Source of the DNA: Psammoneis japonica
Lineage: Eukaryota
Assembly (NCBI GenBank): GCA_008632985.1
Contig: QPGO01000014.1
Span: 124,001 to 188,000, forward strand
Direction: 5' to 3'
Length of the DNA: 64,000 nt
Each line of letters starts with the position of its first letter. Position 1 is the stretch's first letter. This document shows, one piece after another, positions 41,301-64,000 of this stretch. The position numbers and the translations under genes are program-made. The notes beneath the pieces are model-generated. The model was not told the origin of the DNA. It did not search any database and saw only the letters and a program-made list of their open reading frames with translations.

Positions 41301-41650
41301 CAGAGCTGGGTACAAGTTGTGGCAACAGCTCCATTTCAGGGCAGGTGTTGTGCAGCAAAAAAGCTGGTCGCACGACTGCCCTCCTCAGATTTTTGCTGGG
41401 GGTGGCAGAGGAGAGGGTTGGCGAGGAGGTGCAGAACAAATCAACGCAACCTGGTCTGTGCCCCATTGTTGGATGTTTTTCATTTTGCACTAGCCCTGAT
41501 CAAGTGCAGAAACCAGTGCTGCAATGAGCACATCCACAACTTGTGCACGATGCAACAGTGCATGGTGGATGAGAGCACGCGGCCATGGCCAATGGGCTGA
41601 GTGCGCGCTGCTGCACGCAAAGACAGAGACCAAATGTGTTGCATTCAATG
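35360..41650. mobile_element. Degenerate repeat island made of two diverged ~3 kb related units, TpA- and CpG-depleted
   Basis: Matching blocks 35360-35580 vs 38180-38410, 36120-36170 vs 38440-38485 and 37350-37395 vs 38712-38762. Family not identifiable. Confidence 0.65.
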
Positions 41651-42290: not shown

Positions 42291-42424
42291 AGAAATTTTC
42301 ATTGTGGTTGAAAAATTGACAATGAGTTGGATCTTGTTGCTGCCGATGAAGGTTTCAACAAGACTCGTTCTTGGTTTCAAACCTTGATTAATCTTCTCAT
42401 TATTCTGCAAAAAGCGATTTTATC

Positions 42425-44878
42425 ATGAAGCTTTCTGCCTTTTCACTTGCAGCTTGCTTGCTACTTCCCATGGGAGCAGCCGGTCACAATGTCGTTGCCA
42501 ATGCCCTTGATGCCGGTGGAGACCATCACACTCGGGGCAGACGTGTTCTGAAAGGAAAGGGGAAAGACGACAGCACCAAGGAGTCAAAGTCAAAAACAAA
42601 GTCTGATAAGTCCTCCAAGTCGTCGAAGTCCAAGTCGCCGAAGTCCTCTAAGTCATCCGAGTCATCGAAATCCAAGAAAGCTGGCAAGAAAGGCGGCTAT
42701 TTCAACCGCGTCGCCTCGTTCCCCGTCTGTGCCCAAGTCGGTAGCTCTTGTGAGTCTGACGATGAGACAGCCTCGGAAATCGTCACTGTCACTAAGGACG
42801 AGAAGACTATCATCTACTCCAACGAACCGCAAGGACACATTGGTTTTGTTGACATCACTGATCCAAGTCATCCAATGGGTATGGGAACTGTTGGAATCAA
42901 TGGAGATGTCACTTCCGTGGCTGTTATTGGACCGTATGCTCTGGCGGCTTCCAGCACCGGTGCCGACTTTGTGAATACTGCTGGCGAGCTCAATGTGATT
43001 GACATCGAGACAATGACGTCGGTACACATCCTTTCTCTTGGAGGCCAGCCCGACGCAGTGGCCGTCAGCCCTGATGGACGCTATGCTGGGATTGCGATTG
43101 AGAACGAACGTGATGAGGATTTCCCGACAGAAGGAGAAGGGAGAATCCCACAGTTGCCAGCAGGGTTCTTTGTTATCGTTGATATGGAAAATACGGACCC
43201 AACTCAATGGACAATGCAAAGCGTTGCCCTCACGGGCCTTACAGGCGTCCTGGAGCCTTCTGACCCTGAGCCAGAGTTTGTGTCAATCAATTCTCAAAAC
43301 GTTGCCGCCATTACTCTCCAGGAAAACAATGCCATCGTTCTTGTTGACATGGAAACCGCGCAAGTCATTTCAAGCTTTTCTGCTGGTAAAGTCGATCTGA
43401 CCCAGATTGACACCATTGAAGAGTCAGATCTCGGTCCTGGAGCTCTTATTGCCCCGGTCAGCTCTCTCTCCCAAGTTCCGCGTGAACCTGATGGCGTTAT
43501 ATGGATTAGCGACGATCTGTTTGCCACGGCGGATGAAGGTGATATGGATGGTGGATCGCGAGGTTTTACTATATTTAACAAAATGGGAGACATCGTCTAT
43601 ACGTCTGGAAATGACTTGGAACATCTTGTCACCAGCATTGGTCATTATCCTGATAACCGTTCAGAGAACAAGGGCAGCGAATCCGAAAGTGTGTATTTTG
43701 GAATTTACGGCAAAGACCATCTCTTGTTTGTCAATGTGGAGAGATCCAATGTCGTCGTTGTCTATGACGTCTCTGATCCTACACACCCCGAGTTTATCCA
43801 GGTTCTTCCTGCTGGTGTAGGACCAGAAGGTTTAGTGACTTTGACCAAGCGCAACCTTGCGGTTGTCGCCTGCGAAGAGGACGCTCGCGAGGACAAGATT
43901 CGATCTGTTCTTACCATTTACGAGCGCGGCTTCAAAGAACCCCAGTACCCCACGATTGCTTCCACTTTCCGTTCAGACAAAACGCCAATTCCGTTTGGCG
44001 CTCTCTCTGGACTTGGTCCAGATCCTCACGACGACTGTATCCTCTACTCAATTGAGGACAGCTTTTACCAACAGAGCCGCATCTTTCAACTCGATGTATG
44101 CTCGTATCCGGCTGCGCTCGAGGCGGAGCTTCGTATCGTCGATTCAAACGGCGTATTTGCGGCAGTCGACACATTTGGTCTCATCAATCCCGATAACACC
44201 GTGAATATTGACCCCGAAGGCATTGCAGCCATTTACGACGACGAAGGCTTGCACTTCTTTGTTGCTTCTGAAGGTGCTGGTGGAAATGACCCTACCCGGC
44301 CGGTAGCCAAGTTGAATCAGATTTTTAAGGTCGACTACACAGGTGTTATTGAGGAAGTAATTGGACTTCCAGCTGATGTCAATGCTAAACAGATACGCTT
44401 CGGTTTTGAGGGTCTCGCATATTACAAAGGCCGCTTGTATGTCGCCTTCCAGCGTGCATGGTTTGGAGAAGCAAATCCAAGAATCGGCATTTACGATTTA
44501 GAGTCGCAGACTTGGGAGTTTGTCTTTTACGAGCTTGACGTACCCGAATCCCCAAACGGCGGATGGGTTGGCTTGTCCGACATAACATCCCTCGGAGACT
44601 ACAGGTTCCTAGTCCTAGAACGGGACAATCAAGGTGGACCAGACGCGAGAATCAAAAAGGTCTACAAGATTGACCTCTCCGGTCTTTCGGATGGAGACCT
44701 TGTCCCCGAAAAGATCCTGTATCGTGATGTGATCCCTGACATTGAGGATCTAGGTGCTCCAATTTTTGAAAAGTTGGAAGGTCTCGCTTGTAACGACTAC
44801 GGAGTTTGGGTTGTAAACGACAATGATGGCGTGGATGACAATAGCGGAGATATCCAGCTCCTGTATTATGATCACTAG
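42425..44878 (+). CDS. Secreted alkaline phosphatase-like / phytase-like esterase (beta-propeller)
   Basis: Signal peptide and K/S linker. Motifs GQPDAVAVSPDG..IAIENERDE, DPEPEFVSIN, TADEGD..GGSRGF, GPEG, RFGFEGL, LERDNQGG and EKLEG..NDNDG. Intronless. Confidence 0.85.
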   Translation: MKLSAFSLAACLLLPMGAAGHNVVANALDAGGDHHTRGRRVLKGKGKDDSTKESKSKTKSDKSSKSSKSKSPKSSKSSESSKSKKAGKKGGYFNRVASFPVCAQVGSSCESDDETASEIVTVTKDEKTIIYSNEPQGHIGFVDITDPSHPMGMGTVGINGDVTSVAVIGPYALAASSTGADFVNTAGELNVIDIETMTSVHILSLGGQPDAVAVSPDGRYAGIAIENERDEDFPTEGEGRIPQLPAGFFVIVDMENTDPTQWTMQSVALTGLTGVLEPSDPEPEFVSINSQNVAAITLQENNAIVLVDMETAQVISSFSAGKVDLTQIDTIEESDLGPGALIAPVSSLSQVPREPDGVIWISDDLFATADEGDMDGGSRGFTIFNKMGDIVYTSGNDLEHLVTSIGHYPDNRSENKGSESESVYFGIYGKDHLLFVNVERSNVVVVYDVSDPTHPEFIQVLPAGVGPEGLVTLTKRNLAVVACEEDAREDKIRSVLTIYERGFKEPQYPTIASTFRSDKTPIPFGALSGLGPDPHDDCILYSIEDSFYQQSRIFQLDVCSYPAALEAELRIVDSNGVFAAVDTFGLINPDNTVNIDPEGIAAIYDDEGLHFFVASEGAGGNDPTRPVAKLNQIFKVDYTGVIEEVIGLPADVNAKQIRFGFEGLAYYKGRLYVAFQRAWFGEANPRIGIYDLESQTWEFVFYELDVPESPNGGWVGLSDITSLGDYRFLVLERDNQGGPDARIKKVYKIDLSGLSDGDLVPEKILYRDVIPDIEDLGAPIFEKLEGLACNDYGVWVVNDNDGVDDNSGDIQLLYYDH

Positions 44879-45399: not shown

Positions 45400-48300
45400 C
45401 ATGTTTGCCCAGGTCAGTCTGTCACTGATGTGGCATGGACCACTTTGAAACCTGTTCCAAGGGGGTTGCACCTGTGATTCCCATGGTGTGAACCCTCCTC
45501 CCACAGTGCATTGGTTGCTGCATCTGTGTTGATCATGCCTCTGGTTTCATTCGTGTTGAGCATCATCAAGTTACTTTCTTTGCTGTTGAGATGATGTGAG
45601 ACAAGAAGCATTCAAGAAGATGGCAAGTGGTCACAGTGTAATCTCATGTGGGAGCAACATGACAGTGGGTGCTCAAGGCCAACCAGTTTGAATCAAATGT
45701 GCCAGAAATGCTCAGCAGCTCATCCACCATTGCAGGGTCAACTGCCACAATCAGAGTTGTTTCTCTGAGTGCTCCATTCAGTGCAAATCTGAGCTGTGGT
45801 CCTTCACAAATCTGTTCACACCAGACTTCATCCTGCCAACATCTTTGCCAGATTTGTCATCCCATGTTGTTGTTTTTGCATGACTGCCATGCTTGGGGTG
45901 CCCTGTTCCCACATCTTGGAGCCCCAAGCTGCAGCAAAATCACAAGCCCCCTCTTTCATCAACAGCCATGGCCAAGATGCAGAGCATTTTGGGGCTTCAC
46001 CTCAGTCTGTTTCAGCAAGGTCCCACTGGCTCTGAATGAAAATGTCAGCTTTGTGCTGCACCTGATGATCTGTTCTCAATGTGAGCACATCAACCACAGG
46101 GGGATGCCCCACCTGTTTTGCACTGGGAAGACCTCTGTTTAGAGAGCTTCACCCAAGCACCATCAGACTTGTCCAATGGCTCCTTGTTCCTTCAAGATGA
46201 TTGGCTTGCTCCTGCAATTTTGAGCAGGAATTGCAGCATGAAGAGCGAGAGCACAACACCAGAAACTTGCCTCAGCAGCATGATGTGCCCAAGTCCTCCA
46301 GAGTTCCAGCACTGGCAGGAGCAGCAGAACCAAGGCCATTGGCCCCACCTCAGGAGCTGCCATTGCAGCCACCTCAAACACCCAGTCCACCAACAAGTCA
46401 GCAGCTGGCCCACCACTGTCTCTGCAACACATCTGCCCCACCTCCACAGGGCAGAGAAAACTGTCAAGACATTCCAGTCACATGCCTGACTGCTCCAGTC
46501 TCCACCGGTCAAACCCACAATGTGGGCTCACAAAGAAAGGGTGGGGGTGCATGCACATCAACTTATTTTGATGGCAAAGCTTGTCTGTCCTGAGCTGGGC
46601 CATCCAAAGTTGGAGCACAAAATGACCAAAACTTGCCTGCCTTGCTGAAATCCAGACCTGCCATGATGGCAGCATTTTGGACATTCAAAGCCCCAGGGTC
46701 TGTGCCACCAAGACAAAGAAAGATGGTGATGATGTGCCAAATGTGCAAGGAGTTTTCACAAGTGAGTTTGCAGAGCAGCATGCCGGGGCAATGAAGGCTG
46801 ATGTTGCCACATGTGTCCACTGTAAAACACAAAAAATGTCAAGCACGAGGTGTCCATGACTGCCGCGCTGAAGTCCACGATGGCTTTCAAGTTGAAGCAC
46901 CCACCTGGCAGGACTCTGCTGAAACTCAAGGCATGATTTTGTTGTCCAGGCAGGCTCAGCAGTTGCCAGCTGTTTGTCTGTTGTTGTGTGTTTTGCTGCA
47001 AGAAGGTTGTTGGACAACACATCAGGTTGACTGTGCAGGTGTGTGCTGCCCCCCCCCCCCCCTCCCACACACACACACTCACACACACAAGTGTTTTGGC
47101 CGGCCCCAGGAGCTCCAGCTGCAATGTTGTGCTGACAGGGGAGGCAGCTTTGCTTGCAAGAGCTGCAACCAAGGGCTTTTTTCATGTGGCCAAAGAACCA
47201 CACTGTTGCTGAGCATGGCGCTGGCAACACAAGCTCAAGAAGCTGACATTGTGCCCAGCACTCATCCAGTTCATCAGAGGTGGGGTGTTTGCAGTTTTTG
47301 TGTTGGTCCATTGGGTTTTGGCTCCTTGGGTGCAGGTTGACTCTCATTTGCTGCAACAAACCTGCATTTTTCTCACACAACCCCGCCTGACTCCTGCAGT
47401 CCCCACATGATTTGTGCAGAGTGGGGAAATTTAATTGGTGCCTCCTTGATTTAATTTGTCTGATTTTGCAAGAAACAGATGCATTCTTCCAAATTCTCCC
47501 AGTGGTCATCCTTCCCACGTGTTCTCTACACAGACATGCTGTGCAAATCACAAGCTCTTTTTTTGGTGATGCTGTTTCTTTTTTTTGCACAAATTGCCAC
47601 CTCTTTTTTTGTGCTGTTTTCCAACCACAACAAAAATTTTAACCTGCACCTCCAGTTGTGCCAATGTCCCATTCAGCCTGCAAAGTTTGTTCACTTCAAA
47701 ATTTTTGTTTTGTTCAGCTGGATCTGTGCAACAAAATTTCGCTCACAATTTCTTGCTTTTTGGCTCAGTTGCAGTTTCATTTTGCAACCGGAACAACACA
47801 TCTCCACACAGCTGCTGTGTCATGGGTCACTGTTCATCCCCTCCTGGCAATTTTAAGGTGTGCAGGGGATGCCGCCACTCTCATCCATCAAAACAGCTGT
47901 GGCAGAAAGCAGCAAAGAGGGTGCAGAAGGGAAGTTGCCATGTTGAGAACCATCTTCATCTTTTCACAGTTCTTCAGTGCTGCTTCAAGGGGTTGGTGCT
48001 GGAGACATCCAGTGTGCTGCCAGGGTCAATCTCATGCCCCCCATGCTTGCAAGGGGTGCAGCCGGTTGTTCTGTGCTTTTTGCTGGCTTTTCTGACATTG
48101 CTGCCAGGGTTCATCCCATTGCCCCCCTTTTCTGTGGGTGGTGCAGTGATGTCAGTGAACGTGCCCTTCAATGACTTTGTCAGGGTGCACCCCACACTCC
48201 CTCCTCACTTTGGGGACACAGCTGCTGGATCCTGCTTTTTAGGCTTGAAAGCCAGAGAGTGTGCAGCCAGGGTTCATCCCATGACTCCCACCTTTTTGGG

Positions 48301-50400
48301 GGGTGCAGCCATTGTGGGATCCCCCATTGTTTTTGTGTGGATGATTGTCATGATGCATTGTCCCATGGTTTTGGAGATGGTGTTGACATCAGTGGCATTT
48401 TTCTACAGACCACTTCACAGGCTTTGCCGTGGTTCATCCCACATCTGTCATGATGCATTGTTCCATGGTTTTGGAGATGGTGTTGACATCAGCAGCCTTT
48501 TTTTCTGCAGACCACTTTGCAGGCTTTGCCATGGTTCATCCCACATCTGTCATGATGCATTGTTCCATGGTTTCGGAGACAGTGTTGACATCAGCAGCCT
48601 TTTTTTCTGCAGACCACTTCACAGGCTTTGTCATGGTTCATCCCATGTCCCCCCTTCTTCTTGGAGATTGATCCACTCTGTTCACTGCATCTTTCCCCTG
48701 CAATCCCGCTGCATCTTTGCCTCCCACTTGCTTCAGCCTCTGAAGGAGCATTGTCTGTGCCCCAGATCCCTCACATGTCTGTCACTGTCCAAGCAGCACC
48801 TCCTCAAGCACCCACTCTCTCCTTCTCTCATTCCGGTGATTCATTGATTGGTTTGTCTGCAATGGATCCTGTCTTGAACAGCCCAGTTGTGTGCAGCCCC
48901 AAATTTCCCAATTGTGCCACCTGATCTCTTGTTGTGATTCCTCCAAAGCCACCAACCATCCCCTGGTCAGTGCCCACCCATGGAGAGAACTCAAGAACAT
49001 GGGGGTGGTGCATGAAGACCCCAAAAAATTGTGCTGGAAGAACATTTCCTCACTTTGCAAGCTGGGGTGCTGGGCTGGCCACAAGTGCTGCGTGCACATT
49101 GCTTGCATTCAATTCATGCTGCCTGATCTTGGCTGGGGTCAGGCATCCATTTGTGTTGATGGGAAGCACTGTCATCACATGATGGCACATTTGGACATTT
49201 GCAGGGCTGCTGTTGACTTTTGTCACAAAGCCAACATCTTGTTTGACATGTGTCTTCCAAACAAGAATCGCTGCAATGACAGCAGTGCCACAATTTGAAT
49301 CCCTGCCACCTCAGGGGTTTTTGCCTCAGTCACTTGGTGGGTTTGGCCATTGTGAAAATCAATGCCAAGCTTTGACATGAGAACAGGACCCCCCCCTGTG
49401 CTGCACTCAGCACTGCTTGTTTGTCCTCCTGACCTGTGAGGAATGACACAATGAGTGTTTCCACATGTGCGATGTCATTCTGCACAGCCAAGAATCTGAC
49501 AATGCAGGCTGCTCTCATGGAGCCAGGATGGGAGAGTGCTACACTGTGATTTTGGAAATGGCACCCATTGTCCCAAACTTCAAGAACTTGGGTGCAAACC
49601 ATCCAATGGGATTCCTGGCAACAACTGGGTGCTTGCCTTTCTGCTTCATGCATCTCACAGATGTCACAAAGAACAGAAAGGCAATGAAAGCTTGGACACT
49701 TCCCATGCTTCAAGAAAATCCATTGAATGCAGAGACAATTGGTGAAACAGTGGAGAACACAATGAAAAACATTTGTGCTGCCTTTGCTGACCAATCAGGA
49801 GAAATTGTCAGTTGCCGTGGTGATGAAAACTGAGTCTGCAAGGGCTGTCACACAGTGTGCACTGGGGACTCAGATGATCACTTCTTTGACATGGCTCATC
49901 TTGGTCAAAACCTGTTTGTTGCTAAAGAAGCCTTTGTTGAAGTCATTTCTGCCAACAAGAAAAACATTGGACAAGTTGTCAGGGTGAAAGGTGGCCTTCA
50001 TCAGACTGTGCCATTTGGTGGAGAACACATTTCCATTGTTGATTTCAAAAAGGCCTGTTCCTGCCTCTGGATGACAGAGAGATGGTCACGTTGGAAAATT
50101 CAACAATGAAATCTGTGAAAAACTTGATGATCCCAGGAGGAATGGTGCACCAGTTTGTCTGCATGCAGTGCCGGCTGTTGGCAGTCCAAACAGGTGGCTG
50201 CAGTGTTGCTTTTTGTTGGACAGAAAACAAACTTCTCTGCTCTCATTGGTTGGACCACCATTCTGTTTTTTAACAACCACTCAAGTGCACCCTTTGTTCC
50301 CTGCTTGCACTGCTGAGCTGGGATCTGCTCTGCTGGCACATGCACATCTGTGAACAGCTCCATCTAATCCATGTGTTTGTGCACGTCATGCACTCAGCAC
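45400..50400. mobile_element. Highly degenerate repeat-derived sequence, TpA- and CpG-depleted
   Basis: Same composition as the other islands, with broken protein-like frames. Family not identified. Confidence 0.55.
48346..48645. repeat. Tandem repeat of ~101 bp, 3 copies
   Basis: TGTCATGATGCATTGTTCCATGGTTTTGGAGATGGTGTTGACATCAG... starting at 48346, 48446 and 48548. Confidence 0.9.
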
Positions 50401-52439
50401 CTGGTCTCATGACATTGCTTGTCTCTCAACAGTGCTGTCATCTTGTGTGGTTTCCAAATGTGCACTCCAGGCTTGACACCTTCATGTGATGTTGGCAGAT
50501 CCTGCTCAAACAATTCACAATCTGGGTTGCCCATTTGTCACTTCTCTAAGATCTGTGACCTCATGAGCTGGTGGAAATTGTGGATGTGGTGCATCTCTCA
50601 TGCAGAGTTGTGCAGGGAAGTTGCAGCCACACTTGAATCTGACATGTGGAGTCAATGCCAGCAGCACTGCAGGACTGACCACAATTGGAATGAAAGATGC
50701 ACAGTGACCATGGTCAGAGACCATGACACTCCAGCAACTGGAGGGTGTCCCTGCAAATGGGGACCAAAGAAATCAAAGACCAACTCTCAAATGATTGGGC
50801 CCCCATGAACAATTGGGTGCTGATGCAAACACCCGAGGGAACGGAAGAATCAAAACAAGTTGATGGTGACATGGAGCCAATGGCATCCACCCCTCCTAAA
50901 CTCAAACCACCTTGGAAGAAGATGCAGCAACCGAGGTGTCATCAACACCAGCAATGCCCAAAAATCTCCTGGAAAATTGCCCCAACCTCAAGCCAGGCTG
51001 CCCCACATTCATCACAGCCAATCCCACTGCCCTGGACATGGTGGCGGCAGAGGCAATGCATTGATGATGTCACACACTGCAACAAGCACTTGTGCCACTG
51101 GTGCCAGTGAATCACAGAGAGCCCACTGCAGTGCACACCTGGTCCCTGGCAACCCGGGGCACAACCCATGCTCTCCTCTGGCACCCTTGACCACCAACAA
51201 TGCAGAGATGAGGACAACATGGAGGAGGACTCCAATCTGGTCCATGACATCTCAGACCAGAACAATTGCCTCCAAGAGAAGGAGGGTGGGAAGTCCCGAA
51301 ATGACTCTGACACTGCTCCAGTCACAGGAACCCCAAAGGACCAACAAGTTGTGAGCAACACAGGAAGCAGGCCTTCAACAGTGACCCAACCCAGAAGACT
51401 TGTGCAATGACTCATGCCAGCAGTGCAGGTTGCATCTAGAACCCACAAATGTGGGTGCATGCTCATCATCAAGCTCAGTGCAAAGAAAGAAAGAGCCAAT
51501 GCTGGGAAATGCCACATGAGATCCTGATGGAGATGTTCTCCATGCTTCAAGAAGCAGACACGTCTTGCATGTTGCATCCACCATGGAGGGAAGGTTTGAA
51601 CAAAAAATCTCTGTCCAAACCAGAGGGGTCACCCAAAAACAATGCCCAGATGTGGGGCCACATGCACAAGCACTGCATCATGGAAAAAGAGGTGGAGGCC
51701 TTCTGTGATGTCTTCGTTGGGAGCAACAAATCTCACAATGCCATTGTGGAGAGGATGCAAACTGTTTCTTCCAGGACAATGACATTGGATTGTGCCCCAA
51801 CTCCCCAACTCAGCTCCACTCCCCCTCAGGAACTCTCTGGGCTGGGTGGCTGCTCCACTGCTTTGAGGATCATGACCACGAGGCCCTCAAGGTGGCATTC
51901 CAGAAGGCCACAGGACAGGAAGTTTGCTTTAGATGGAGGAACATCAACACGAGGGACCCAGGGCAGAGGAGGGACATGACAACCAATGAAGTGCATGTCT
52001 TCAAGGCTGAAGCTTGCTCTGAGAAAGAGCATCAGGCAACAAAAGCTGTGCAGCAAATTCAAAGGGCAAAGTTGCTAAAATTGTCCCCAACCACAGGAAC
52101 ATCTTCAATGACAGGTCCAAGCAAGAACAGAGGTCAAACATCTTTGCTCAGTGGCAGAAGCTCAGGCAGAAAAGCAAGAACAGGCAACCTCAATCAACAA
52201 GACGTGTGGCTCAACCTCACAACCATGGCAATGAAAAAACCAGAGTGCCTGCTTCTGGCTCTGACAATCTTGGAAAACCAGGCAAAGTGCACAATGGCCC
52301 CAGCACTCAAAAGAGGCCTCCCCAGTGCTGGCATGTGCAGGAACATGACCAGGGATGCAGTCTGCAGACCACTCACATGCCAAGGGCTTGGCACAAACCA
52401 CCTCTTCATCACCAAAGCAATCTCTCAAATTGGAATGAT

Positions 52440-52717
52440 TGACAGAAATTGAAGGCAAATGGCAAGAATTCAAACAACAACTCCTCACTGCTGTCTAAAT
52501 GGCAGATGAGTCTCTGCTCAGAGACCATTGCAGGAGCCGAAAGATGTGCAAGTCAGTGCAATCGGGCTGCTGTCATTGTTCTTGTGAGCCGTGTGGCTCG
52601 AAAGCAAACTGCATCGCGCGTGCACGCGCGGAGCTAAAGAGCACACAAAACTGTGCGCGGCAAACTAAACAGCGCGCAACATGTCGCGCGCACCCAAATC
52701 CTGTTCAAATCCTGTCA
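52440..52717 (-). repeat. 3' LTR (278 bp)
   Basis: Direct repeat of 60979-61233 and adjacent to the polypurine tract. Confidence 0.93.
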
Positions 52718-52719
52718 CT

Positions 52720-55700
52720 CCCCAGTTTGCTTGAGGAGTCACAGAAACAGATTCGACTTTGGATGGAATGAAGTTCCAGAACATGAGGGGGCGGAGAAGG
52801 TCCCAGACTTGGGAGCAACCCCAATGCTTGCTGAGAATGTCAGCAGGGTTGCGGGAGCCTTCGATGAAGTGGAGCTCAAGGTGACCAGAGGCAATTGCCT
52901 CGCACACGGTGGAATGATGGTGCGGTGTGTCGCTTGTGTAACTTGGAGTGCGGGATGGTGGCACTGTCTACAACCGACTTGTTGTCACCGAACATGCAAC
53001 TGATGTCACGGATCGGGACGCCGAGGCAGCGCAGGGTGATGCGCAGGTCGACAATCTGCTCGACACAAGTCCTTGCGGCAACAAATTCAGACCCGCAGGT
53101 CACAGTCTCCATGGTGGCTTGCTTCTTAGAGAACCAATCAGCCGGGAATTTGTTGAGGAAGTGGAGCATTCCCATGACAGAGCGTCCGGTGAGCATGCAA
53201 TGATGCAAGTTTGCATCGACGCAGTGGGTGGCAGTGACAAACTTGCCAAGGGGCGGTGGAGCGTCCTTCGGGATCATCTCTTCTGCTTCGCCGTACACGG
53301 AATGCATCCATTCATGGGCCGGAGCAGGGAGATCCAAACAGTCGGGCTCTTCCGTGCGGACGCGGAGAGCGCCGTGTTGCATCTTGGAGAGGCAACCACA
53401 GATGCGTTTGGCACGATCCAAGTGGCCTTGATGGGGTGCAGCTCGGAAGCTAGAGAGTGACATGACGGCCGTGGCAATGTCAATTCGACCAAGGGACACT
53501 GCCCATTGGAGGGAACCAACAAGAGACTGGAACTGTTGAATGCCATCGGGCCCCAGCAGTTCGGAAGTGTCCATTTCGGGGTGGTCACCCTTCTCCAGAG
53601 GGGACAGGGCGTTGGTGGCAGGTTTCTCCCCAAACAGTCGTGTGCAGCTGTCGACCATGCATTCGATGTACTTGCGCGGAGACAGGCACAAGGTGCCATC
53701 AGGATCCCGGGAAAAGTCGCAGCCTGGATGGAACTCAATTGGTCCCGCACCCTTGAGCTTGAACTTGCACTTTTCTGTGAGAGTGTCGACGAAAGATTGA
53801 GGGTCCTTCATGGCAATGGCGAGGTCATCCACACAAACGGCAACACATTTGCAGTGGTCGCCGTTCCTGTGCATCCAAATGTCGGGTTCGGCGCGGCAGG
53901 GGAAGAAACCTTCAGCTCGCAGGCAGTCGGCAAAGCGCTCGTGCCAGCGGAGGCCGGAGCTGCGCAGTCCATGCAGGGCCTTGTGGATGACAAGAATGTG
54001 GCCTTCGAGTTTGCCAAATTCGGGTCCAGCTGCAATGTGCAGCTTCTCCTTGGTGGTGGCTTCAAGGTGGGCATTGCCAATGTCGGTGGCCCATGTCTCC
54101 AACTCGCTGAGTTCGGCCAGGAAAATCATCAGCCGAAGGCAACAAAGGGAGACTGCTCCGGAGCAGACACTGTCAACAGGTACGTCCGTGAGGTGTCCAT
54201 CGGCTGTGAGCCGTGCCTTGTGGCGGCCGTCGTGTTTCACGTCGCACACTGGGTGCACTCGGATCTTCTTGTGTCCCGCAGGAGGAGTGGAAGACTCGGA
54301 GGGCCCGCAGTCATGAAAGACTTCGTATTCATCGAGTTGGTCCATCTCGAGATTAGTTGTGTCTCCCCATTTGCGGTTGCCGTTGCGTTCGTCTAGTGAC
54401 ATGGCGTGTTTGTAGTTCCGGGGAACTTTGCATCCGCACTTGCAGCGAGGTGCAGTGTGGAAGGAGCAAAGCTTGGCTTGGTTGGCCATGCGGAGTGGCT
54501 TCTTCTGGCGCCTCGCGATGGTGCGGAACCGCTTCCAGCCATCAGTGTTGAGAAGTCCGTTCTCTTGTGCATGGATGGTGCAGGTGACAGGGTTGTCCTT
54601 GGTGATGATGGCAAGAGGCTCGGACGTGATCTCCCCACTTTCCCATTCAAGCACAATGTTGTAGCTTGAGCCTTTCCAGGTTGGGTCATGAGGCTTCAGA
54701 GGTCCTTCGTGTGACACAATGCATCGAAATTTCCAAACAGTGGTGTCTTCGTCTTCTTGCTCAATGTGATTCATGATGTCGTTGCAGGCCAGGACTTCCT
54801 CGCATTTGTCGTTGTTGACAGAGCAGACACACTCAGTGAGCTCGGGGTTGCCGTTCACTTTCCAGTCATGATCTTCAACGGCCTTGACGATGCGAGCTCT
54901 GTGGCATTGTCCGTCCTCTTGTGGCTGCATGAGGAAGGCGCATCCGATGATGTCTTGCGGATCAAAAACTGGCATCTTGGGTGTCCTGATCTCCCCATCA
55001 GGTGAATTGACGGGGTTGTCATCATGGCGAGATTTGATGATGGGTTCAGGTGGCTCCCCATCAGGAGGATCAAGACGCAGGTTTTGAACGGAAGGATCGG
55101 CAGCAGCAGAACGTACATTTGACCAGTGGAGGATCTTCTGAGTGTCATCAGAAAGAATCTTAAAGGTCATCTGGTGGCCGACGTGCTCAGCAATTCCAAC
55201 AAAGTGTCCACGCAACTCACGGGATTCGGACGGCCAATCAGAGTCATCGAGGTGGAAGCACACAGGTTCCCACCAGTGAAAGCGAAGCAATGGGCTGATG
55301 TCCGGGGTGGAGCCAGTGAGAGTCTTGAGGGGCGTGCGCCAGTGGAGACGTGGGGATGCTGTGTGGTTGAGTGTGAAGCACACGCACATGAGTGCCAGCA
55401 GCCATGTGTGGGCAGGCGAACCGAAACGGTCCATGACGGTGTTCGCCATGCGCTTCATGGTCTGGTGTTGACGTTCGGCAAAGTTTTGGTGTTGCTGGTG
55501 AGGCTCGCTTTGCCAGCTGGAGACAAAGAGGGCTCATGGAATCCCAAGCACCTTGTTGCTGATCTCAACTTGAGCACGGATCCTCGAGTGTGTTGACAAA
55601 CTCCATGTCCGTTTTGGTGCCGTAGACGTCAGTGATGGCAGACTCGGTGCCAACAAACAGTTGGGCGCTGGTGCAACCAGAGTCAACGGCCAGGGTGTCG

Positions 55701-58301
55701 GCACAAACGGTGTCAGTGGCGATGGGCTCGTTGTGGCGGTGCACATTAAGGGTGGGGTTGGGCGATTTGCAGGCCTTCTTAAGGTGCGCACCGGCGGGCA
55801 TGCGGGCGCATTGCGTGGTGCAGTCGAAAGTGCGACGAACCGTGTCGGCAGGTTGGAAACCAAAGCAGGGCCGAAGAGACTCGTGGGGGGGGGTCCGTGG
55901 GCTGCACATTGCACTCCAGAGGCGGAACGTCACCATCCTTGGGGTCAATCGTGTGCAGATGACACTCGTAGAAGACGTCTTCATTCAGAATGAGGTGGTC
56001 ATCGAGGGCGGACGCGTGATCAGCAGACAAGGAGGCGGACATGACAGCCTTGTTGACAACGACACGGTGACGGCAGTTGCCGCACTTGTCAAACAGGTTG
56101 GCAGTGGGATCGTCCTGCAGGTCCGAGATCGCATCGCACCACTGGTCGTCGTCAGTGACAGAGTGATCGAGGACGGAAGGGTCCCATGTGTCATTGCCGG
56201 TGAGGATGACATGTGGCAGGGTGTCCCATTCGTCGTCAGTGCAGGGCCGCATGGCAACACAAGGCAAGCCACCCTTGATGTCAATTGGGATGACACAGCC
56301 ATCAGGTGTGGCGATGCGCTGCAAGCCATTGGGCACCTTGACAGAGCGATCGTTGACATCGTGTTTGCACCATTCGAGCTGGCCACAGGAGTGAATGGTC
56401 TTGCCCTTTCCTGTGCATGCGTGCTGATGGAGGATGGCGACAACGGGACCACGCTGTGTCTCAATGATGGCACCAGCGGTGACAATGGGGATGTCCACCA
56501 ATTGATGGTCATCAATGCCCTGAACGTCGACTTGGCGAGAGGTGCGCGCAATGACGCGAACGTTGTCGCCAGCAATGCTGCCGTTGGCTCCACGATCGAC
56601 TGGAGCACCAGTGCGTGTGGAGTGATGAGCGGAGGCAGAACAAACGACATTGTGGTTGTTGACGCAGCGGCAAGTGCGGCCATTGAGTTCCATGTTGTCT
56701 GGAGGAGTGGGCGAGGCAGAGGGAGCGGCGGATGGGCCCGGTCGACCAGCTTTGGGGGCTTGGTTAGGGGACAACAGGTGTTGCAGATCACCGGGTGGCA
56801 GTGGCCTGCGCTTGGTGAGATGCGCCAGAATGGGATTGTCTGAAGTGGCATCCCCAGGCGGGGCGGGATCACCAGAGTCAGCAAGAGTCGTGGCGGACAA
56901 GTTGACATCACCGTCACTCCCAAGTCGTTGGTCGTGAAGGTTGACCACAATGGACTCGTGCCAGTTGCTGGCTCGTGGGTTGCGAGGAGGCGGACGAGAA
57001 TGCTCAAGGATGATCGCCTTGGAGGAATGGGGCAATGAATCCCAAATCCGTTGGTGGTCGGGAGGGAGACGTTTCCATTGGTCGCCGGTGAGGCTGGGAC
57101 CGTGGGTGCAGGCAGCGTGAGCCTGAAGGACGTCAATGTTGCTGTCGATGTCATGGAACACATCATCGGATGGTTCCTCGGAGCAGACGTCATGTGCGCA
57201 TGTGGCGCGGCGGGGAGCTCGAGGTGTTGTCTTGGGTTGAAACGTGCTGTCACATTGAGCCGCCGCGGAGAGGAGCAAGCCACAATGTTGATCGCATGTG
57301 AGGCTCTTGCCACTCTGCGTGCGATGTTGATCAGCTTGGTTCTTGACGGCGCGGAGTTCCTCGACAGGATGTGCGGCATTCTCGAGCATGACGCGCTTCT
57401 GTCCTTCAGAGAAGTGGTCACTGGCCGGGATGAGTGCCTCGCACTTGTGCAACTGATCCTGCCAATGAAGGATGAACCCATGGGTCAGACCTTTCCAAGT
57501 GCCATCACCAAGGCGTGTGGTGGTGAGGTGCGTGAGCAAGGTGGAGGACTCGACAGAGGCGTGGGTGGAGGCGAGCGCACACTCGGACAAGGAGCGGCAG
57601 ACGGTCTGGGCATCAGAAGACCCCACATTTTTGCGAATGAGAGCTTTGCCCTTGTCGGTGAGAAGGATGCATTCGAAGACGGCGAACATGCACTTTTGTT
57701 GTTCAGCAAAGAGCAGTTTGTCTTCGGGGGTGGTTGGTTTGTACGACGAGTCTAAAATGCACTCGACGTCTTGGGCACGGGCTTGTGCCACAAGTGAGGT
57801 GTGCCAAGTGTGCCACTGCTTGTCGGATTTGAGAGCCGTGAAGGCAGTGGGGTCACGCTTGATGCCTCGCTTGAAATCTCGCACTGGGTCGCGTGCCTTG
57901 GTCGGGTTGGTGACATGCGGAGGTGCAAGAGGTGAGCTGCCGACGGACACAGAAGACATGCAGTCGGGGCTGAGGCAGCAGGCAAGGAACTCATCGTGCG
58001 TGAACAACGAGGAGTCATTGGCAACATCAAGGCCTTTGTGTGCTTTGACAATGTGCAGACCAACTTGAGCTGCTGACATGTTCTTATGACCTCGGGGCAA
58101 TGGGATCACATTGGTGCTGTCATCGCACTCAAGCGAGTCGATTTGGGAAGGTGTGAACGTGAACAGTTCTTGGCATGAGTCCGTGCCGTCATGGGTCAAA
58201 GCCAAATGAAGAGGGCTTCCAGCACCTCGGGCAAGCACAGTTCCAACAACGTGCTTGAAACCATCGGTTTGTTGCTGACGAGTGAGAACCATGGCAGACA
58301 A
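52720..58301 (-). pseudogene. Copia gag-pol pseudogene
   Basis: Gag FKRGIKRD, protease VDRGANG, integrase ATDT/SEPHQQHQNFAER, RT DVKHDGRHKARL/DIGNA/CVDD and RNase H VDAN/SEFVA/GDN/NPADILSK. Disrupted by frameshifts (~55890, ~52895), a short deletion (~55580) and a TGA stop (~55535). Confidence 0.93.
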
Positions 58302-59075
58302 AGACGGTGTCAGGACAAGCGATTCTTGTCAGGATGCGGAGGCAGACTTGAAACTTGAGTGGAAATGGACTTGACTTGAAATGGACTTGACTTGAAATCT
58401 TGAACCATCTTAAAATCAGAAGTTGCCGGGTTGTGTCATCCCGCTCGTTGTCAAGTGCTAAACTTCCCATCCGGTCTGCAGAGTTGTGCTGGCACGTCCA
58501 AACCCGCAGCCAGCAGCACTTTGGGTTGCTTGCGAGCGGAGCAGCGGGTTGTGAACCCCTGCAGGTGGGCTGACTGGAGGTGGACAAGACCCCCGAACCG
58601 TTCTCATTTTACATCGGTCAGATTTCCCGATCAGGCTGGCCAGTTGACGCAGGCGTTGGGCGCTGTGGACAAACAAACAAACGCGGGAAAACACCCTCGC
58701 CCCAACGCAGGGGCTGCAATCACGGCCACTTGCTCTCACAGTCGTCCTCGTGGACCCAGTGGAACTGTGGAGCACCAGCAGTCCGGGGCAGATCAGGTGC
58801 AATGGACTCGGCGTGCTTGTAGAGTGGCAGCAAAGCCGCAGTCCAAAGAGTGGGTTCAAGTTCTTGGCCGTGAAGACATGTGTGTGCATGTGTCTTCAGC
58901 GATGATGATCCTTGAACATGCAGGGTTCTTGACCGTTAACCATTGAATGGGTGCATCAAGGGATGAGGATCAAGGACAGACTTGGACACAACCGTTGAAT
59001 GTGTGTCTTCAGCGATGAGAAGTGGCACAATCAATCCAGACATCCAGCGGTGAGGAGACTTGATGGTGACGTTAA

Positions 59076-60819
59076 CGGGGACCCCCCGCAAGTCTGTACG
59101 ACCATCCGATGGAGCATTTTTTGCGAGTGAAACGCAACCCTTCTCGTGTTGTCACCGCGATAATTTCCTTTTCAGTCTGTTGCATGCCAACCTTGTTGTA
59201 GCTGTCCTGCTGGCGATCCTTTTCAACAAATCGTTTGTTCTGCTCCTGTTGCTGAGGTTTGGTCAAAACGATCGCCAGCAGAAAGTGCGTTTTGACAACA
59301 ACAATTGTGTTTCTGAATGTCGACGTTGCCAAGCGCAGTGATGCTCCAAACTCCTCCAAGCCCACCCAAATGGAAGAAAAAGCTGACGAAAAGAAGCATG
59401 CAATCCCGGTGCACAATGTGTGGTGCTGGCATGGAAGAAACCCGGGGTTTCAGTGCCAGGAGTGAGTCACAAAATGTTGATGTTCTTTGTCATGTTGTTT
59501 CAATGTCTCGCATCTCACAAACATTTGTTTGGTCATTGCAACTGTCCAGCTGTCATTCCTTTCCTGTGAATCATTTGTTCTGCTCCCATTGATGAGTCTT
59601 GATCAAAAGGATTGACAGCAGAAGGTGTCATTTTATGACAACAATTGTGTGTCTCTGTGTCGTCATTGCCAAGCAGCGATGCAACAATCGCCTCCACCAA
59701 TGCCACCCAAATGGAGGTAAAGCCAATGAAAAGAAATGGAGGAAGAAGCGCAAGCAGGAGATTGCAATGCCCCCAAGCTGTCTCTTTGTCACTGAAGAAG
59801 CTTTGAATGTGAAAATGACCACAAATGGTGTCTTTTTGCGGATTGGTGGTGTCAATCAAATGTGCGCACATTGTCAGAGGTGCCAGAGACCAAAAAAGAA
59901 TGCCAAACTTTCTCCTGAGGGATGTTTGCAATGCCTGACAAATGAAGATCTCCTGCCCAATGCATGTCATCCTCCAAGCTGTCTAAACCTTTCTGGTCTC
60001 ACTTGCCACCTGGCCAGCAAACTGTCATTGAACAAATCGTTCTTCCAAATCAAAGGCCACGTGGCGAGATTTGCAGGGAATGGAACTAAGGGAACTTTGA
60101 AACTGAATCCGTTCTCACACTGTAGTTCTCTAGCATGCCTTGCTTCGTCTATTTTCGTCTCCCATCGCGCAATGCTGGAAGCTGTGAAAGCCCAACAAAG
60201 ATCTCCTGCCTCATGCATGTCATCGCTTGTCCAAAGGACACGACACTTTTTCTCCTTTTGAGCAAATGACACCTGGTGGCTTTTCCAAATCATCACTGTC
60301 ATGCATTTTTGAGTCTCTTGTTTTACCAGTTTTTGCTGCTTCATTCAAAAATCGGTCGCTGGGGCCCCAAATGATGCGCACCAACAGCGAGCAGGTCACG
60401 ACAACTCTCTCGTTGTTGTTGCTTGATTTTCGACCGACTGTCTTTCCTCCTCCTCATTGGAAACAGAATGAGTCTCACCGCTTTATTTTGTTGCTGTTTG
60501 CTTGCATCGGTTGAGTGACAGCAGTGCTTGCCGCGGCAGTCGTCTTTGCGCAGAACAACTGAATTTGAGGTGCCTTTGAGGGCGGACGAGACATCGGACT
60601 TGTGGAGTCCTGGAAAGCCACCACGTTGTAATGCCTTCAGCATAAGGTCACCATCCATCCATGTGCACCGCAACGTAGCCGGAAAGGCGGTGACAAGAAG
60701 CCTTGCGGCCTCTGTAATCTTCATCGTTGATTTGCTGTTTTTGTGATGGAAAAAATGCAGCGCATTTGTCATGGAGCGGAAGCAGCGCGGACAACGTACA
60801 GACTTGCGGGGGGTCCCCG
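59076..60819. mobile_element. Non-autonomous DNA transposon with 25-bp perfect TIRs, TTAA-flanked, nested in the Copia leader
   Basis: TTAA|CGGGGACCCCCCGCAAGTCTGTACG ... CGTACAGACTTGCGGGGGGTCCCCG|TTAA. Internal ~170 bp duplication (59230 vs 59570). Confidence 0.88.
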
Positions 60820-60978
60820 TTAAATTCCTGCCGATGCCTGGCATTGAATTCGCGCAGACTTGCCGATGTGCGTAGAACATGTGCGGAGGTCCATGCAGAA
60901 TTGAGGTGGCGTCGTTGGTAAATCAACGACGACGATGGCGGTTGCTCAATGGGTTGACAATGAGCAAGACTGTCAATC

Positions 60979-61233
60979 TGACAGAAATTGAAGGCAAATG
61001 GCAAGAATTCAAACAACAACTCCTTGCTGCTGTCTAAATGGCAGATGAGTCTCCACTCAGAGACCGTTGCAGGAGCCGAAAGACGTGTGAGTCGGTGTGA
61101 TTGGGCTGCTGTCATCATTCTTGTGAGCCGTGTGGCTCGAAAGCAAACTGCATCGCGCGCGCACGCGCGGAACTAAAGAGCACACAAAACTATGTGCGGC
61201 AAACTAAACAGCGCGCGACATCAAATCCTGTCA
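60979..61233 (-). repeat. 5' LTR (255 bp)
   Basis: Direct repeat of 52440-52717 that lacks 23 bp. Confidence 0.93.
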
Positions 61234-64000
61234 ATGATCATGAAACACTCCCAGCTTGGCACTGTCACTGGTGACTTGTTGGTCAAGGCCAACCTTCAAC
61301 AGCATCAGTTAGAACTCAGGCTGCCAGGCCAATTTTTTGACAACAACTTCAACGAGTTTCGCCATCTTGCCACTTGCTTCTGGACCAAGGATGCACGGAA
61401 ATTTCCATCTCTAAACAACACCAGGATAGAAGCAGATCTGTGGACACTTTCCCTGCACTGGGAAAATGACAAGTTCCTCATCAAAGAGTTCCACAGAGCA
61501 GGTTTCCAGGGAAAGAAACTGGCCCGAATCAGTCTCTGCAAGCTGCACCTGTGTGTCAACACTGTTTCTGACATGGTCATGGACAATGGAAGGAGGGTCC
61601 TTCAAAATCATTGGAATGGGCAACTGGGCCTGCCAAGGCACAACCCCCATCATGACAATTGGACTGGCTGGAACAGGGCAACCCCTCACAGAATGATTGG
61701 AGAAAGTGGAGAGAGGTCTTAGAAACAGTCATTGGACCACAGAAATCTGTCATCAATGACCTGTTGCAACAGCAGATGGACAACCTGTTGCACAAATGGC
61801 CACATTTCCTGTTCGTTGTAGAGCAGTGGGTTTGCAAGCACACCCAAGTGGGAAACTGGAGATGCTCTGCTTCTGTTCTAGGTCACCCAACAAGAACAAT
61901 GAGTTCTTTGTGTTGCCACTGTGCTGGAGAGACCAACAAACTGCCAGACAACCTGTTGAGAACAAGAATTCATGGGAACGACACAGCAATGATGTCAACT
62001 GGTGTTGTGCAGAAATTTGGTTGCACAGAGCCGTGTGCCCCAATGAATCTCTAGGAAGCAATTGACAGGCTCCACGCAGACATCAACTGGCTGGCAGAAG
62101 ACTTCAAAAATGATGATGATGGCACTGAGGTTGCTTGCACAACCTCCAAAGGAACTGCCACAGTGACATCTGATGAGTCTCATTTGAGTGGCAAAGGTGC
62201 ATCTGCTTGGACCACACAGGGAACCCAGGATGACCACAAAACTGAAGGCATGAATGCAGCAAGAGGCAACCCTTCCAATGTGAATGTGTGCCAAGCAGAA
62301 ATTGTCAGACAACTGTGATGACATGCATCATTTGCGATTTTCATGATGTCACCCAGGGACAGGTTTCTCTTGGATGTGACAGCAACCAGGCCTTGAAGAG
62401 CTCCAACAACCCTGGGTTGCAAACTCACCAAAAATCAAAAGCAGCGCAATGTGTTGTCAGCACTGCACTCCTGGATTCAAAAATCACAGGTGTGATGGAC
62501 CACTGTCAACATGAAAGGGTGCATGGACAAAATGACATTGCCTGCAAGGACCCAGACCATCCCTCCAGGCTAAATGCAGACATGGACTCAAGGGCCAAAG
62601 AATGAATGGCTGACATGCTGAACAATCCCACCTGCACAGCAAGTGCAGGTGGAAATGTGGTCACTTTGGATCAGAAACAGGAAAGTCATGTCCAATGCTG
62701 CAGATTCAATGCAACATGCAACCAGATGGCAGGAAAATGCTGCAGTGCTGAGCAGAAAAAGGGAGATTTTCCTCACTGAGCATCAGAGACGTCAGTTGGG
62801 ACTTCCAGGTAAAAGCGACATCCAATCTGACACCATCCAGACAACAATGGGCAGCAAAGCATGTGTCTGGATCATGCAGGGTCAACAAGATGCTGTGCAC
62901 ATGGGGCAAATCTCTGGCGCAGTCCTGCCCACAATGCCTTTTCCCCCAGTGGATGACTCAAACCACATGCTGGAATGTCAGGTGGAGAGTGCGGTGGAGA
63001 CATTGCACAACTGCTCAGCGACACTTCAAGAGTGGTTGTGCAAAGCAGAGATCAATCTAGAAATCACCAAAATCATGCTGCAGAGACTTCAGGAATGGAA
63101 AGAGGGTGTTCCAATGCAACAAATTCACTCACAAAATGATCTCATCTGGCAGGTGGTTGACTCTCAGGATTGGACAGGATGGGGCAGATTTGTTGAAGGG
63201 GGTGCATGTCTTTGGATTGGAAGTTTGCTCAGAATGCATGCCACAAATGGGCAAACTCCAGGAGACAAGGCCAAAGGCAGGTCAGATTTCTCATTGTCAA
63301 GGCTTGCAACGCATCATGGGACCAATGGGAACACCACAACAGCACAGTCCACCCGGCCAACATGATGCCAACAGAGGCACAAGCCAAAGCCATTCAGGGT
63401 TGGGTTTGAGGTGAGTTTGCATCAGGTCCTCAACAAGAACTTCCACCAATTGACATGAGGACATTCAAAGGAACTCTGGATGAGTTTTTGAGCAGCACTC
63501 TGGAATGCCTCCAAGCCTGGCTGAACAATGTGAGTGCAGCTCACAACTCTTTCTGATGACTGCAAGCAGAGCAACAACACCAGGCACATGAGCTCATGCT
63601 AGATTGGCTGCAGAGTGCCAACAACAACGTTCAACATTTACAATGAAGGGTGGGGCCTTCTTGTTGTCATTGTTCACATTTCATGTGGTTGATCCAAACC
63701 AGTTGGGTGACCTCTTCTGGAAACTTGGGTGATGTAAAAGCCATTTGGCAGTGCAACAAGCAGTGATCTTTGAGTCATTTGTTTGTTTGGGTTGCCCATT
63801 TGTTCTTGGGTTTTGACACCCTGTCTTGGCTTCTCTTCCTTGAGGGTGGGGCTGTCTTTGAACACCACAAACACCTTTTTTTGTCAAAGACACCACAACT
63901 GGATCAAACATGGGATCCCCAACCAATGTGTGTGCCTTTGCGTGTCATTCCAAAATGGTTGACTCAAACTGGTTGGTGTCTCTCTTTAGAAGATGGCTGC

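Follow-up and report, generated by a model that had tools for sequence, protein, structure and literature searches.

The window analysed here is a stretch of 64,000 nucleotides (nt) from the nuclear genome of the diatom Psammoneis japonica (GenBank assembly GCA_008632985.1, contig QPGO01000014.1, positions 124,001 to 188,000 of the forward strand), and all positions are counted from its first letter. At 52440-61233 it contains one Ty1/copia long terminal repeat (LTR) retrotransposon, coding on the minus strand, which lies among repeats strongly depleted in the dinucleotide TpA. Compact genic DNA fills the left half of the window, with genes for THOC2, a kinase, an ankyrin/EF-hand protein, a histidine phosphatase and a lectin. 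The history that we consider likely for the retrotransposon is a single copia insertion into an older repeat block, followed by transitions almost only at TpA and CpG dinucleotides.

The copia element and its terminal repeats

The two LTRs share a gapless core direct repeat of 243 nt (52440-52682 and 60979-61221, 92% identical), of which no third copy was found within the 64-kb window. LTR A (52440-52717, minus strand, 278 nt) is the 3' LTR in the orientation of the element and LTR B (60979-61233, minus strand, 255 nt) is the 5' LTR; both have TGACA...TGTCA ends. The element is bordered by the target-site duplication ATGAT, read directly on the left (52435-52439) and on the right (61234-61238). 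Because this 5-bp duplication is intact and the LTRs end in TG..CA, the element is a single insertion whose LTRs were copied from one template. LTR A carries 23 additional nt at about 52683-52705 compared with LTR B, repeating the adjacent CAAATCCTGT motif; these are either a small duplication gained after insertion or the result of a deletion from LTR B.

Next to the 3' LTR, a purine-rich run of the element sense strand (52718-52730, minus strand, read directly) is likely, from its letters and place, to be the polypurine tract. The pol region (52731-56960, minus strand), located using tblastn with nine long homologues, encodes an integrase core, a reverse transcriptase and part of an RNase H, and the integrase-core part lies upstream of the reverse transcriptase in homologue alignments spanning 56960 to 52731. 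The same searches place breaks of the pol frame near 55915, 55579 and 52905. Its longest open frame (52876-55458, minus strand, 860 aa) matches RVT_2 with E = 1.1e-18 and has 833 relatives at E <=0.001 among 5723 candidates, with a best identity of 65%. Since identities in the protein collection reach 65% at most for near-length hits and 67% at most for shorter ones, no other copies of this family are present in that collection. The assignment to Ty1/copia is based on the RVT_2-type reverse transcriptase with an upstream integrase, the TG..CA ends of the LTRs and the 5-bp target duplication.

The upstream 4 kb of the element (56961-60978, minus strand), where gag is expected, gave no Pfam match, and no gag was recognised there. 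An autonomous copy would have intact gag and pol; with three breaks in the pol frame, 16 of 21 conserved tyrosines lost and CVDD in its catalytic motif, this copy is, judging by its sequence, a dead member of its family. The upstream part also contains a diverged internal direct repeat (59196-59395 and 59536-59735) and a nested insertion of 1.75 kb (59072-60823; inverted match 59072-59100 / 60823-60795). The perfect inverted ends of this insertion are 29 nt long and include TTAA on both sides, which resembles a piggyBac-type TTAA target duplication. In the nested insertion, the ratio of observed to expected dinucleotide counts (obs/exp) is 0.16 for TA and 0.68 for CG.

Other copies of the family were searched among contigs of sequencing runs (four runs of one study, contigs with at least 80% likeness to the element), and the largest run was used. 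Contigs of this run join 59069 to 60818, and hence derive from family copies without the nested insertion; contig depth is 232-2048 over 59188-60622, against 18,000-96,000 elsewhere.

Differences between the LTRs and loss of tyrosine codons

Within the 243-nt core 19 nucleotides differ, all of them by transition (19/19), and these differences group into 14 sites. At five sites, 52486-7, 52515-6, 52549-50, 52559-60 and 52577-8, two adjacent nucleotides differ, CA in one LTR being matched by TG in its partner. LTR A reads CA, TG, CA, CA and TG at these positions, and LTR B reads the opposite form at each of the partners located 8539 nt rightward (61025-6, 61054-5, 61088-9, 61098-9 and 61116-7), so that the LTR A stretch 52486-52578 holds all five. 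Seven single sites have CG in one LTR and TG (four sites) or CA (three sites) in the other; one site has TA vs TG (52653, with the TA in LTR B); and one, G vs A at 52633, falls outside the TA/CG/TG/CA set. An earlier note on this DNA had counted 14 substitution sites, 13 of them in that set, with five CA/TG sites and one at which TA is seen directly, and the core alignment agrees with each of these counts. Both product forms, CA and TG, are present in both LTRs. Twelve CG sites are unchanged in the two LTRs, and the sites that the LTRs share are balanced between 19 CA and 18 TG.

When 19 changes were placed at random on 243 positions, at least five adjacent pairs were obtained in 0.8% of 100,000 placements. 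Eighteen of the 19 mismatches lie within the 130 positions belonging to pyrimidine-purine (YR) dinucleotides, and one within the other 113. As controls, 79 related copia loci from metagenomes were used, 10 of which had a terminal repeat pair (90-99.9% identity). In the control pairs this type of mismatch accounts for only 37 of 111 differences (Fisher p = 3.7e-7 vs this element) and transitions for 72 of 111 (Fisher p = 8e-4). As these loci were chosen for intact conserved peptides, one of them with a Tyr, the sample is biased towards undamaged copies.

The direction of the change at TpA is visible in pol. The 860-aa frame was aligned with 30 homologues, and Tyr columns were counted where they were at least 80% conserved. 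In 21 such columns this copy retains Tyr in 5, and has Cys in 11 (all TGY codons), His in 3 (CAY) and Phe in 2; the other conserved columns of the alignment show 44 changes in 431. One of the altered columns belongs to the catalytic motif, CVDD here vs YVDD in the consensus of the 30 homologues. TA was thus lost from 14 of 19 ancestral TAY codons (0.74). Conserved Arg codons of the CGN type were turned into TGY, TGG or CAY in 6 of 34 cases (0.18), the same value as for CpG loss in the LTRs (7 hits in 38 chances). The composition of the frame follows: compared with 120 homologues it has 0.6% Tyr vs 4.1%, 4.6% Cys vs 1.2% and 5.5% His vs 3.5%.

Some side observations concern the TpA that remain and the strands on which they were lost. 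All five surviving conserved Tyr codons are TAC. Three TpA are retained in both LTRs (52497, 52637 and 52666, with their LTR B partners), all within CTAAA, a motif which also holds 9 of the 55 TpA remaining in the element; this context may be refractory, or the sites protected. Counts of NTAN over the whole window showed no clear effect of the flanking bases on TpA survival. In pol, changes from Tyr to Cys outnumber those from Tyr to His (11 vs 3, binomial p = 0.057), and the sense strand of 52731-56960 has a TG obs/exp of 1.71 vs 1.37 for CA; the upstream 4 kb is balanced (1.50 and 1.48).

Family copies and the ancestral dinucleotide

The family is very abundant, with 11,630 contigs of the largest run matching the element, and 1,918 run contigs are at least 99% alike to this copy. 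The differing places, sorted by change, comprise 233 A>G, 203 T>C, 199 G>A and 174 C>T, and between 13 and 38 of each transversion. Family states per site were obtained for the best 40 of 1010 differing places. Three pairs among them, 52918-9, 53315-6 and 58619-20, are CA/TG swaps when this copy is compared with the majority of the family. At 52918-9 the other copies have C (94%) or T (5.8%) in the first position and A (99.85%) or G (0.15%) in the second, so that TA is present in the family and CG virtually absent. At 53315-6 they have 29.5% T in the first position and 14% G in the second. The excess of TA over CG among family copies amounts to 5.6% at 52918-9 and to at least 15.5% at 53315-6. 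This copy also has TG or CA at 52558, 52997 and 56697, where TA is the commoner state of the family (62%, 64% and 100%, respectively).

Since a CA/TG pair taken alone can derive from TA or from CG, a caveat of the earlier note which stands for the five LTR sites, methyl-CpG decay alone has to be weighed as their origin: the five sites would all have been CG, with the C lost on a different strand in each LTR. The seven single LTR sites do show CG in one LTR, 13 of the best 40 rows of the run comparison are CpG losses in this copy, and the blocks flanking the element have a CG obs/exp of 0.10-0.12. Diatom transposons are methylated, according to PMC9998398, and the counts do not rule out CpG decay when the analysis is limited to 52480-52600 with an allowed local loss of ~0.7. 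Over the whole core, however, 12 CG are intact in both LTRs, and decay at the rate of 0.18 predicts 0.33 visible opposite-strand double hits against the five seen (P(>=5) = 2.6e-5). CpG decay is moreover slow in the family, 97-98% of the depth keeping CG at 52555 and 52678, and it accounts neither for the changes from Tyr to Cys or His nor for a TA obs/exp of 0.12. We therefore regard it as highly improbable as the sole cause.

Loss of TpA at the rate of 0.74, in turn, predicts 3.35 visible doubles, which places ~0.9 of the expected doubles on TA. TA ancestry is favoured because of the loss rate of the Tyr codons, this double-hit arithmetic and the presence of TA at two other swap sites; each of the five CA/TG sites is thus very probably one and the same TpA lost on opposite strands in the two LTRs. 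As a pattern that would speak for editing before integration, the earlier note had named a consensus with CG at all CA/TG sites together with TA losses common to both LTRs. The former is not what the two swap sites show, with TA and little or no CG among the family copies; of the latter one case is visible, at 52557-8, where both LTRs read TG and 62% of the family depth reads TA. Double hits in the same direction after insertion would also give such a shared loss.

It was also considered that the LTR differences were imported, by ectopic gene-conversion tracts or by an assembly consensus mixing several copies, the mutation process being real elsewhere. The very high copy number of the family, the location of 9 of the 14 sites, all five doubles included, inside 52486-52578, and the CA/TG swaps against the family majority at 52918-9, 53315-6 and 58619-20 agree with such an origin. 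It is opposed by the intact target duplication and the identical LTR ends, by the alternation of CA and TG between the LTRs, which leaves no single tract of foreign states, by differences that run on to 52678, and by the single non-YR difference, when those of the control pairs are mostly non-YR. Import is in our opinion unlikely.

Two further observations were made on the LTRs of the family. Family copies without 3 nt at 52577 were found among the run contigs, and this gap gives a weak indication on the ancestral state of that site: a duplication of ATT would place TA there, and a duplication of CAT would give the CA of LTR B. A degenerate pattern of the LTR matched only the two LTRs in the window, and nothing in contigs of metagenomes, viruses and prokaryote genomes.

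Regional mosaic, proposed process and known systems

TpA depletion in the window is restricted to repeat regions. In the genic part, Pfam-supported frames have a TA obs/exp of 0.49 (CG 0.94), and the remaining 19.3 kb of 1-34 kb have 0.61 (CG 0.91). These values fall to 0.12 and 0.31 for TA and CG in the repeat block at 35-42.4 kb; the older repeat block at 35501-41500 has 0.00-0.15 for TA and 0.00-0.30 for CG in 500-nt steps. The older repeat block hosting the insertion (45501-52434, measured at 46001-52439) has TA 0.05, CG 0.10, CA 1.78 and TG 1.86, and the depletion continues on the right side of the element (61239-64000), with TA 0.08 and CG 0.12. The element itself has a TA as low as 0.12 with a CG of 0.78. 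CA and TG reach 1.7-1.9 in the depleted blocks, and the borders at ~35.5, 41.5 and 45.5 kb are sharp, each lying within one 500-nt step. In this one window, repeat regions are thus at TA 0.05-0.12 vs 0.49-0.61 for the genic part.

As the non-coding DNA beside the genes is undepleted, the mosaic does not reflect a bias of the whole genome that selection holds in check. Among the 79 related loci from other sources, TA obs/exp is at least 0.49 (median 0.71), and only one of the 120 homologues is Tyr-poor, so that the depletion belongs to this genome, not to the clade of the element. Three candidate causes were dropped: a genome-wide mutational bias, the DNA outside open reading frames in the genic part keeping a TA obs/exp of 0.61; GC-biased gene conversion, TpA alone being affected with AA, AT and TT normal; and a simple-sequence composition of the depleted blocks, whose sequence is complex.

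The CA/TG swaps are not confined to the LTR pair. Fourteen other repeat alignments of the window, some of which overlap and two of which lie in genes, contain 179 adjacent double differences; 44 of them are CA/TG, against 8 for the second most frequent class. The segments at 37267 and 38639 differ by 14 swaps in 358 nt, and a tandem array of ~100-nt units inside the depleted block (48298-48645) shows, over 48346-48645, four CA/TG swaps and no other double. Single TA/TG and CG/CA sites also separate its copies, and surviving TA and CG can thus be seen there. The segments at 37267 and 38639 belong to a series of diverged duplicated segments in 35416-38983 (35416/38240, 36115/38431 and 37267/38639) without Pfam match. 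Rfam gave no match within the window.

These repeats bear on the possibility that the element was edited before integration, an adenosine deaminase acting on its RNA or on single-stranded cDNA with uneven copying into the two LTRs. Editing of retroelements by adenosine deaminases is known in animals; these enzymes prefer a 5' U or T, and editing of the ADAR or APOBEC type leaves clustered transitions in retroelements. The sense-strand excess of TG in pol (11 Cys vs 3 His, p = 0.057; TG 1.71 vs CA 1.37) and the TA loss common to both LTRs at 52557-8 would agree with this origin. RNA editing, however, gives one-strand A to G changes that are identical in both LTRs, and here the LTRs differ at 14 sites with both forms in each, their shared sites are balanced (19 CA, 18 TG), and the flanking blocks are depleted too. 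As CA and TG occur in each LTR, both strands were hit after the LTR copies had separated, and as the same swaps occur in non-LTR repeats and in the tandem array, the process is independent of reverse transcription and of RNA editing. The argument of the earlier note against ADAR-type editing is thereby reinforced, and editing as the cause of the LTR differences appears scarcely credible, although a contribution before integration to the shared losses is possible.

The timing follows from the LTR pair: LTRs are identical at insertion, which supports that the differences arose afterwards. The earlier note had held that the pair was mutated in genomic DNA after insertion and on both strands, and this is borne out by the two product forms in each LTR and the intact target duplication. 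It had also warned that LTR dating would overestimate the age of the insertion. The Jukes-Cantor distance between the LTRs falls from 0.083 for all positions to 0.0089 when only those outside YR dinucleotides are counted (1 mismatch in 113), an overestimation of about ninefold, with a wide error.

Two processes are proposed to account for these data. The faster would change TpA to TpG or CpA, i.e. A:T to G:C at TpA, on either strand, as TpA is self-complementary and can be hit on both; a TpA lost on opposite strands of the two LTRs would then leave CA in one and TG in the other. Some ~74% of ancestral TpA would have been lost per copy, at a rate ~7 times that of CpG and ~150 times the per-nucleotide background (1 in 113). 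The chemistry may be an enzymatic deamination of T-preceded adenine in DNA, with inosine read as G. The slower process would change CpG to TpG or CpA, with ~18% lost per copy, and would correspond to the usual decay by deamination of 5-methylcytosine in methylated, silenced repeats. Two such clocks fit the mosaic, where old blocks lack both dinucleotides and the younger element has lost TA and little CG. Acting in repeat blocks with neighbours spared, the process has the behaviour of a targeted genome-defence mutator and not that of a bias of the whole genome. The anatomy of the insertion, the spectrum of changes, the direction of TpA loss and the mosaic are directly visible in the sequence, and from them we infer the TA origin of the five LTR sites and a targeting by repeats or by their chromatin.

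A number of points weigh against this reading. Nothing in one 64-kb window points to an enzyme or to a targeting signal. The five LTR sites are not polarised directly, none of them being among the best 40 of the 1010 differing places, and a homogeneous TpA model at the pol rate of 0.74 fits the LTR counts poorly (sites with no hit, a single hit and a visible double: expected 0.86/4.79/3.35, seen 3/1/5, chi-square 9.2). The model needs refractory CTAAA sites and near-saturation elsewhere; if the three CTAAA sites are refractory, the remaining LTR sites imply a TpA loss of ~0.95. The best 40 rows hold 13 private CpG losses and only 3 TpA losses, an excess which probably reflects the ranking, since other copies are mixed at TpA sites. 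A family contig reads TG at 52621 like LTR A, and the CG of LTR B at this site is either a gain or the survivor of a recurrent loss in the family. Ten of the 40 rows (those at 55918-58620) have no contig backing the letter of this copy, and the run is possibly the sample behind the assembly, so it does not confirm every letter independently.

The closest known system was described by Mettrop et al. (bioRxiv 10.64898/2026.01.13.699255) in the chlorarachniophyte Bigelowiella natans, where integrated viral DNA undergoes a hypermutation specific to TpA. Of the 302 nuclear mutations found in 15 mutation-accumulation lines, 231 were located in two regions of integrated viral DNA; these were almost exclusively A to G or T to C changes, all of them at TpA, and their rate was ~1000 times that of the genome. 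The preprint names an ADAT2-like protein as a candidate enzyme and reports an enrichment of reverse-transcriptase and DDE domains in genes poor in TpA. The signature found here is of the B. natans type. In both cases TpA is changed to TpG or CpA according to the strand, in chromosomal DNA, in foreign or silent regions only, and the long-term trace is a TpA depletion with an enrichment of CpA and TpG. Here, the TpA change is documented by the 14 TAY codons, one LTR site and the TA of family copies, and its action on both strands by the two forms in each LTR and the same swaps in non-LTR repeats, with a timing deduced from the LTR pair.

The differences from B. natans are nonetheless several, and what is new here lies in the targets, the host group, the depth of depletion and the LTR-pair evidence. 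The host is a diatom (a stramenopile) and not a rhizarian, and the targets are an LTR retrotransposon, a nested DNA transposon and unclassified repeats instead of giant-virus and virophage inserts. Depletion is near saturation, with TA at 0.05-0.12 vs 0.45 given for the nucleocytoplasmic large DNA virus region of B. natans in the preprint. The evidence is historical (LTR pair and codon losses), whereas that of B. natans consists of de novo mutations in lines. Lastly, changes are not exclusively A:T to G:C: CpG is lost in the same blocks, with CpG-type changes at 7 LTR sites and in 6 of 34 CGN codons, which were attributed to a second, ordinary process.

The B. natans lines are also informative on a possible artefact, in which modified TA and CG in repeats would be misread per strand by a long-read basecaller. 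Such errors would stay in modified regions, give CA or TG at random and split identical LTRs at exactly these dinucleotides; 10 of the 40 rows are without any run contig carrying the letter of this copy, and only 0.47 of the words sampled from the element occur in the best run. On the other hand, the age gradient, with CG at 0.78 in the element vs 0.10 in the older flanks, fits real decay and not miscalling of methylated sites, 1,918 run contigs are at least 99% alike to this copy, and the private G of this copy at 52919 is found at a depth of ~47, about that of a single contig (35-84). Many non-YR differences are present in the old blocks too, and the same signature is real in the Illumina data of the B. 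natans lines, according to the preprint. Misreading was thus considered as very unlikely.

Fungal repeat-induced point mutation (RIP) resembles the present case as a transition hypermutation confined to repeats, which kills transposons, produces sharp regional contrasts and inflates LTR divergence. Unlike here, however, RIP makes C to T changes mostly at CpA and so creates TpA, when in this window TpA is destroyed and CpA/TpG created: the TA obs/exp of the element is 0.12 and the Tyr codons give the direction as loss. Diatoms carry RID-like DNMT4 genes, to which PMC9998398 assigns no known function, and a cytosine enzyme such as DNMT4 does not explain A:T to G:C changes. Methyl-CpG decay in silenced transposons accounts for the seven CG-vs-TG/CA sites, the 6/34 CGN codons and the CG of 0.10 in the old blocks, but it cannot remove TpA, and in this element it is ~7 times slower than TpA loss.

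It may tentatively be proposed, with chances that we put slightly below even, that diatoms possess a repeat-targeted mutator which deaminates adenine at TpA in double-stranded chromosomal DNA and is related to, or convergent with, that of Bigelowiella. Before the 2026 chlorarachniophyte preprint, no cellular system was known to destroy chromosomal TpA, and a search of the full-text literature, in which subscription journals are thinly covered, found no diatom for which TpA loss or a RIP-like process had been described. A second independent case in a diatom would suggest adenine-directed genome editing as a general eukaryotic defence. If the proposal is true, TpA is erased from transposons while ordinary sites change by less than 1%, which removes Tyr codons and presumably TATA-like signals, and the defence would be widespread in the supergroup of stramenopiles, alveolates and rhizarians, shaping the repeat landscape and the apparent transposon ages of major marine algae. 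LTR pairs are natural mutation-accumulation experiments and would provide a simple assay, and the search for the enzyme would be pointed to a group with genetic tools. In such genomes, LTR-divergence dating, repeat landscapes based on Kimura distances and gene calls based on open reading frames would be badly biased.

As TAA and TAG are lost along with other TpA, repeats contain long false frames, and 45 frames of at least 80 aa were counted over 9.5 kb. The sole Tyr-poor protein among the 120 near-length homologues (P0066, Tyr 1.7%, with Cys raised to 2.2%) is encoded on a 46.8-kb contig from another source, and could represent a copy that has lost part of its TpA in a different organism.

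Two genes outside the element complete the description of the window. In the genic part, a cysteine-desulfurase frame (29512-30651) is 83-89% identical to proteins of Seminavis, Attheya, Nitzschia, Epithemia, Cylindrotheca and Pseudo-nitzschia, in line with a diatom host. Between two depleted blocks, a gene for an 828-aa phytase-like / choice-of-anchor I protein (42392-44878) forms an island with near-normal TA (0.31-0.70) and CG (0.73-1.12), both of which drop within ~600 nt of its end.

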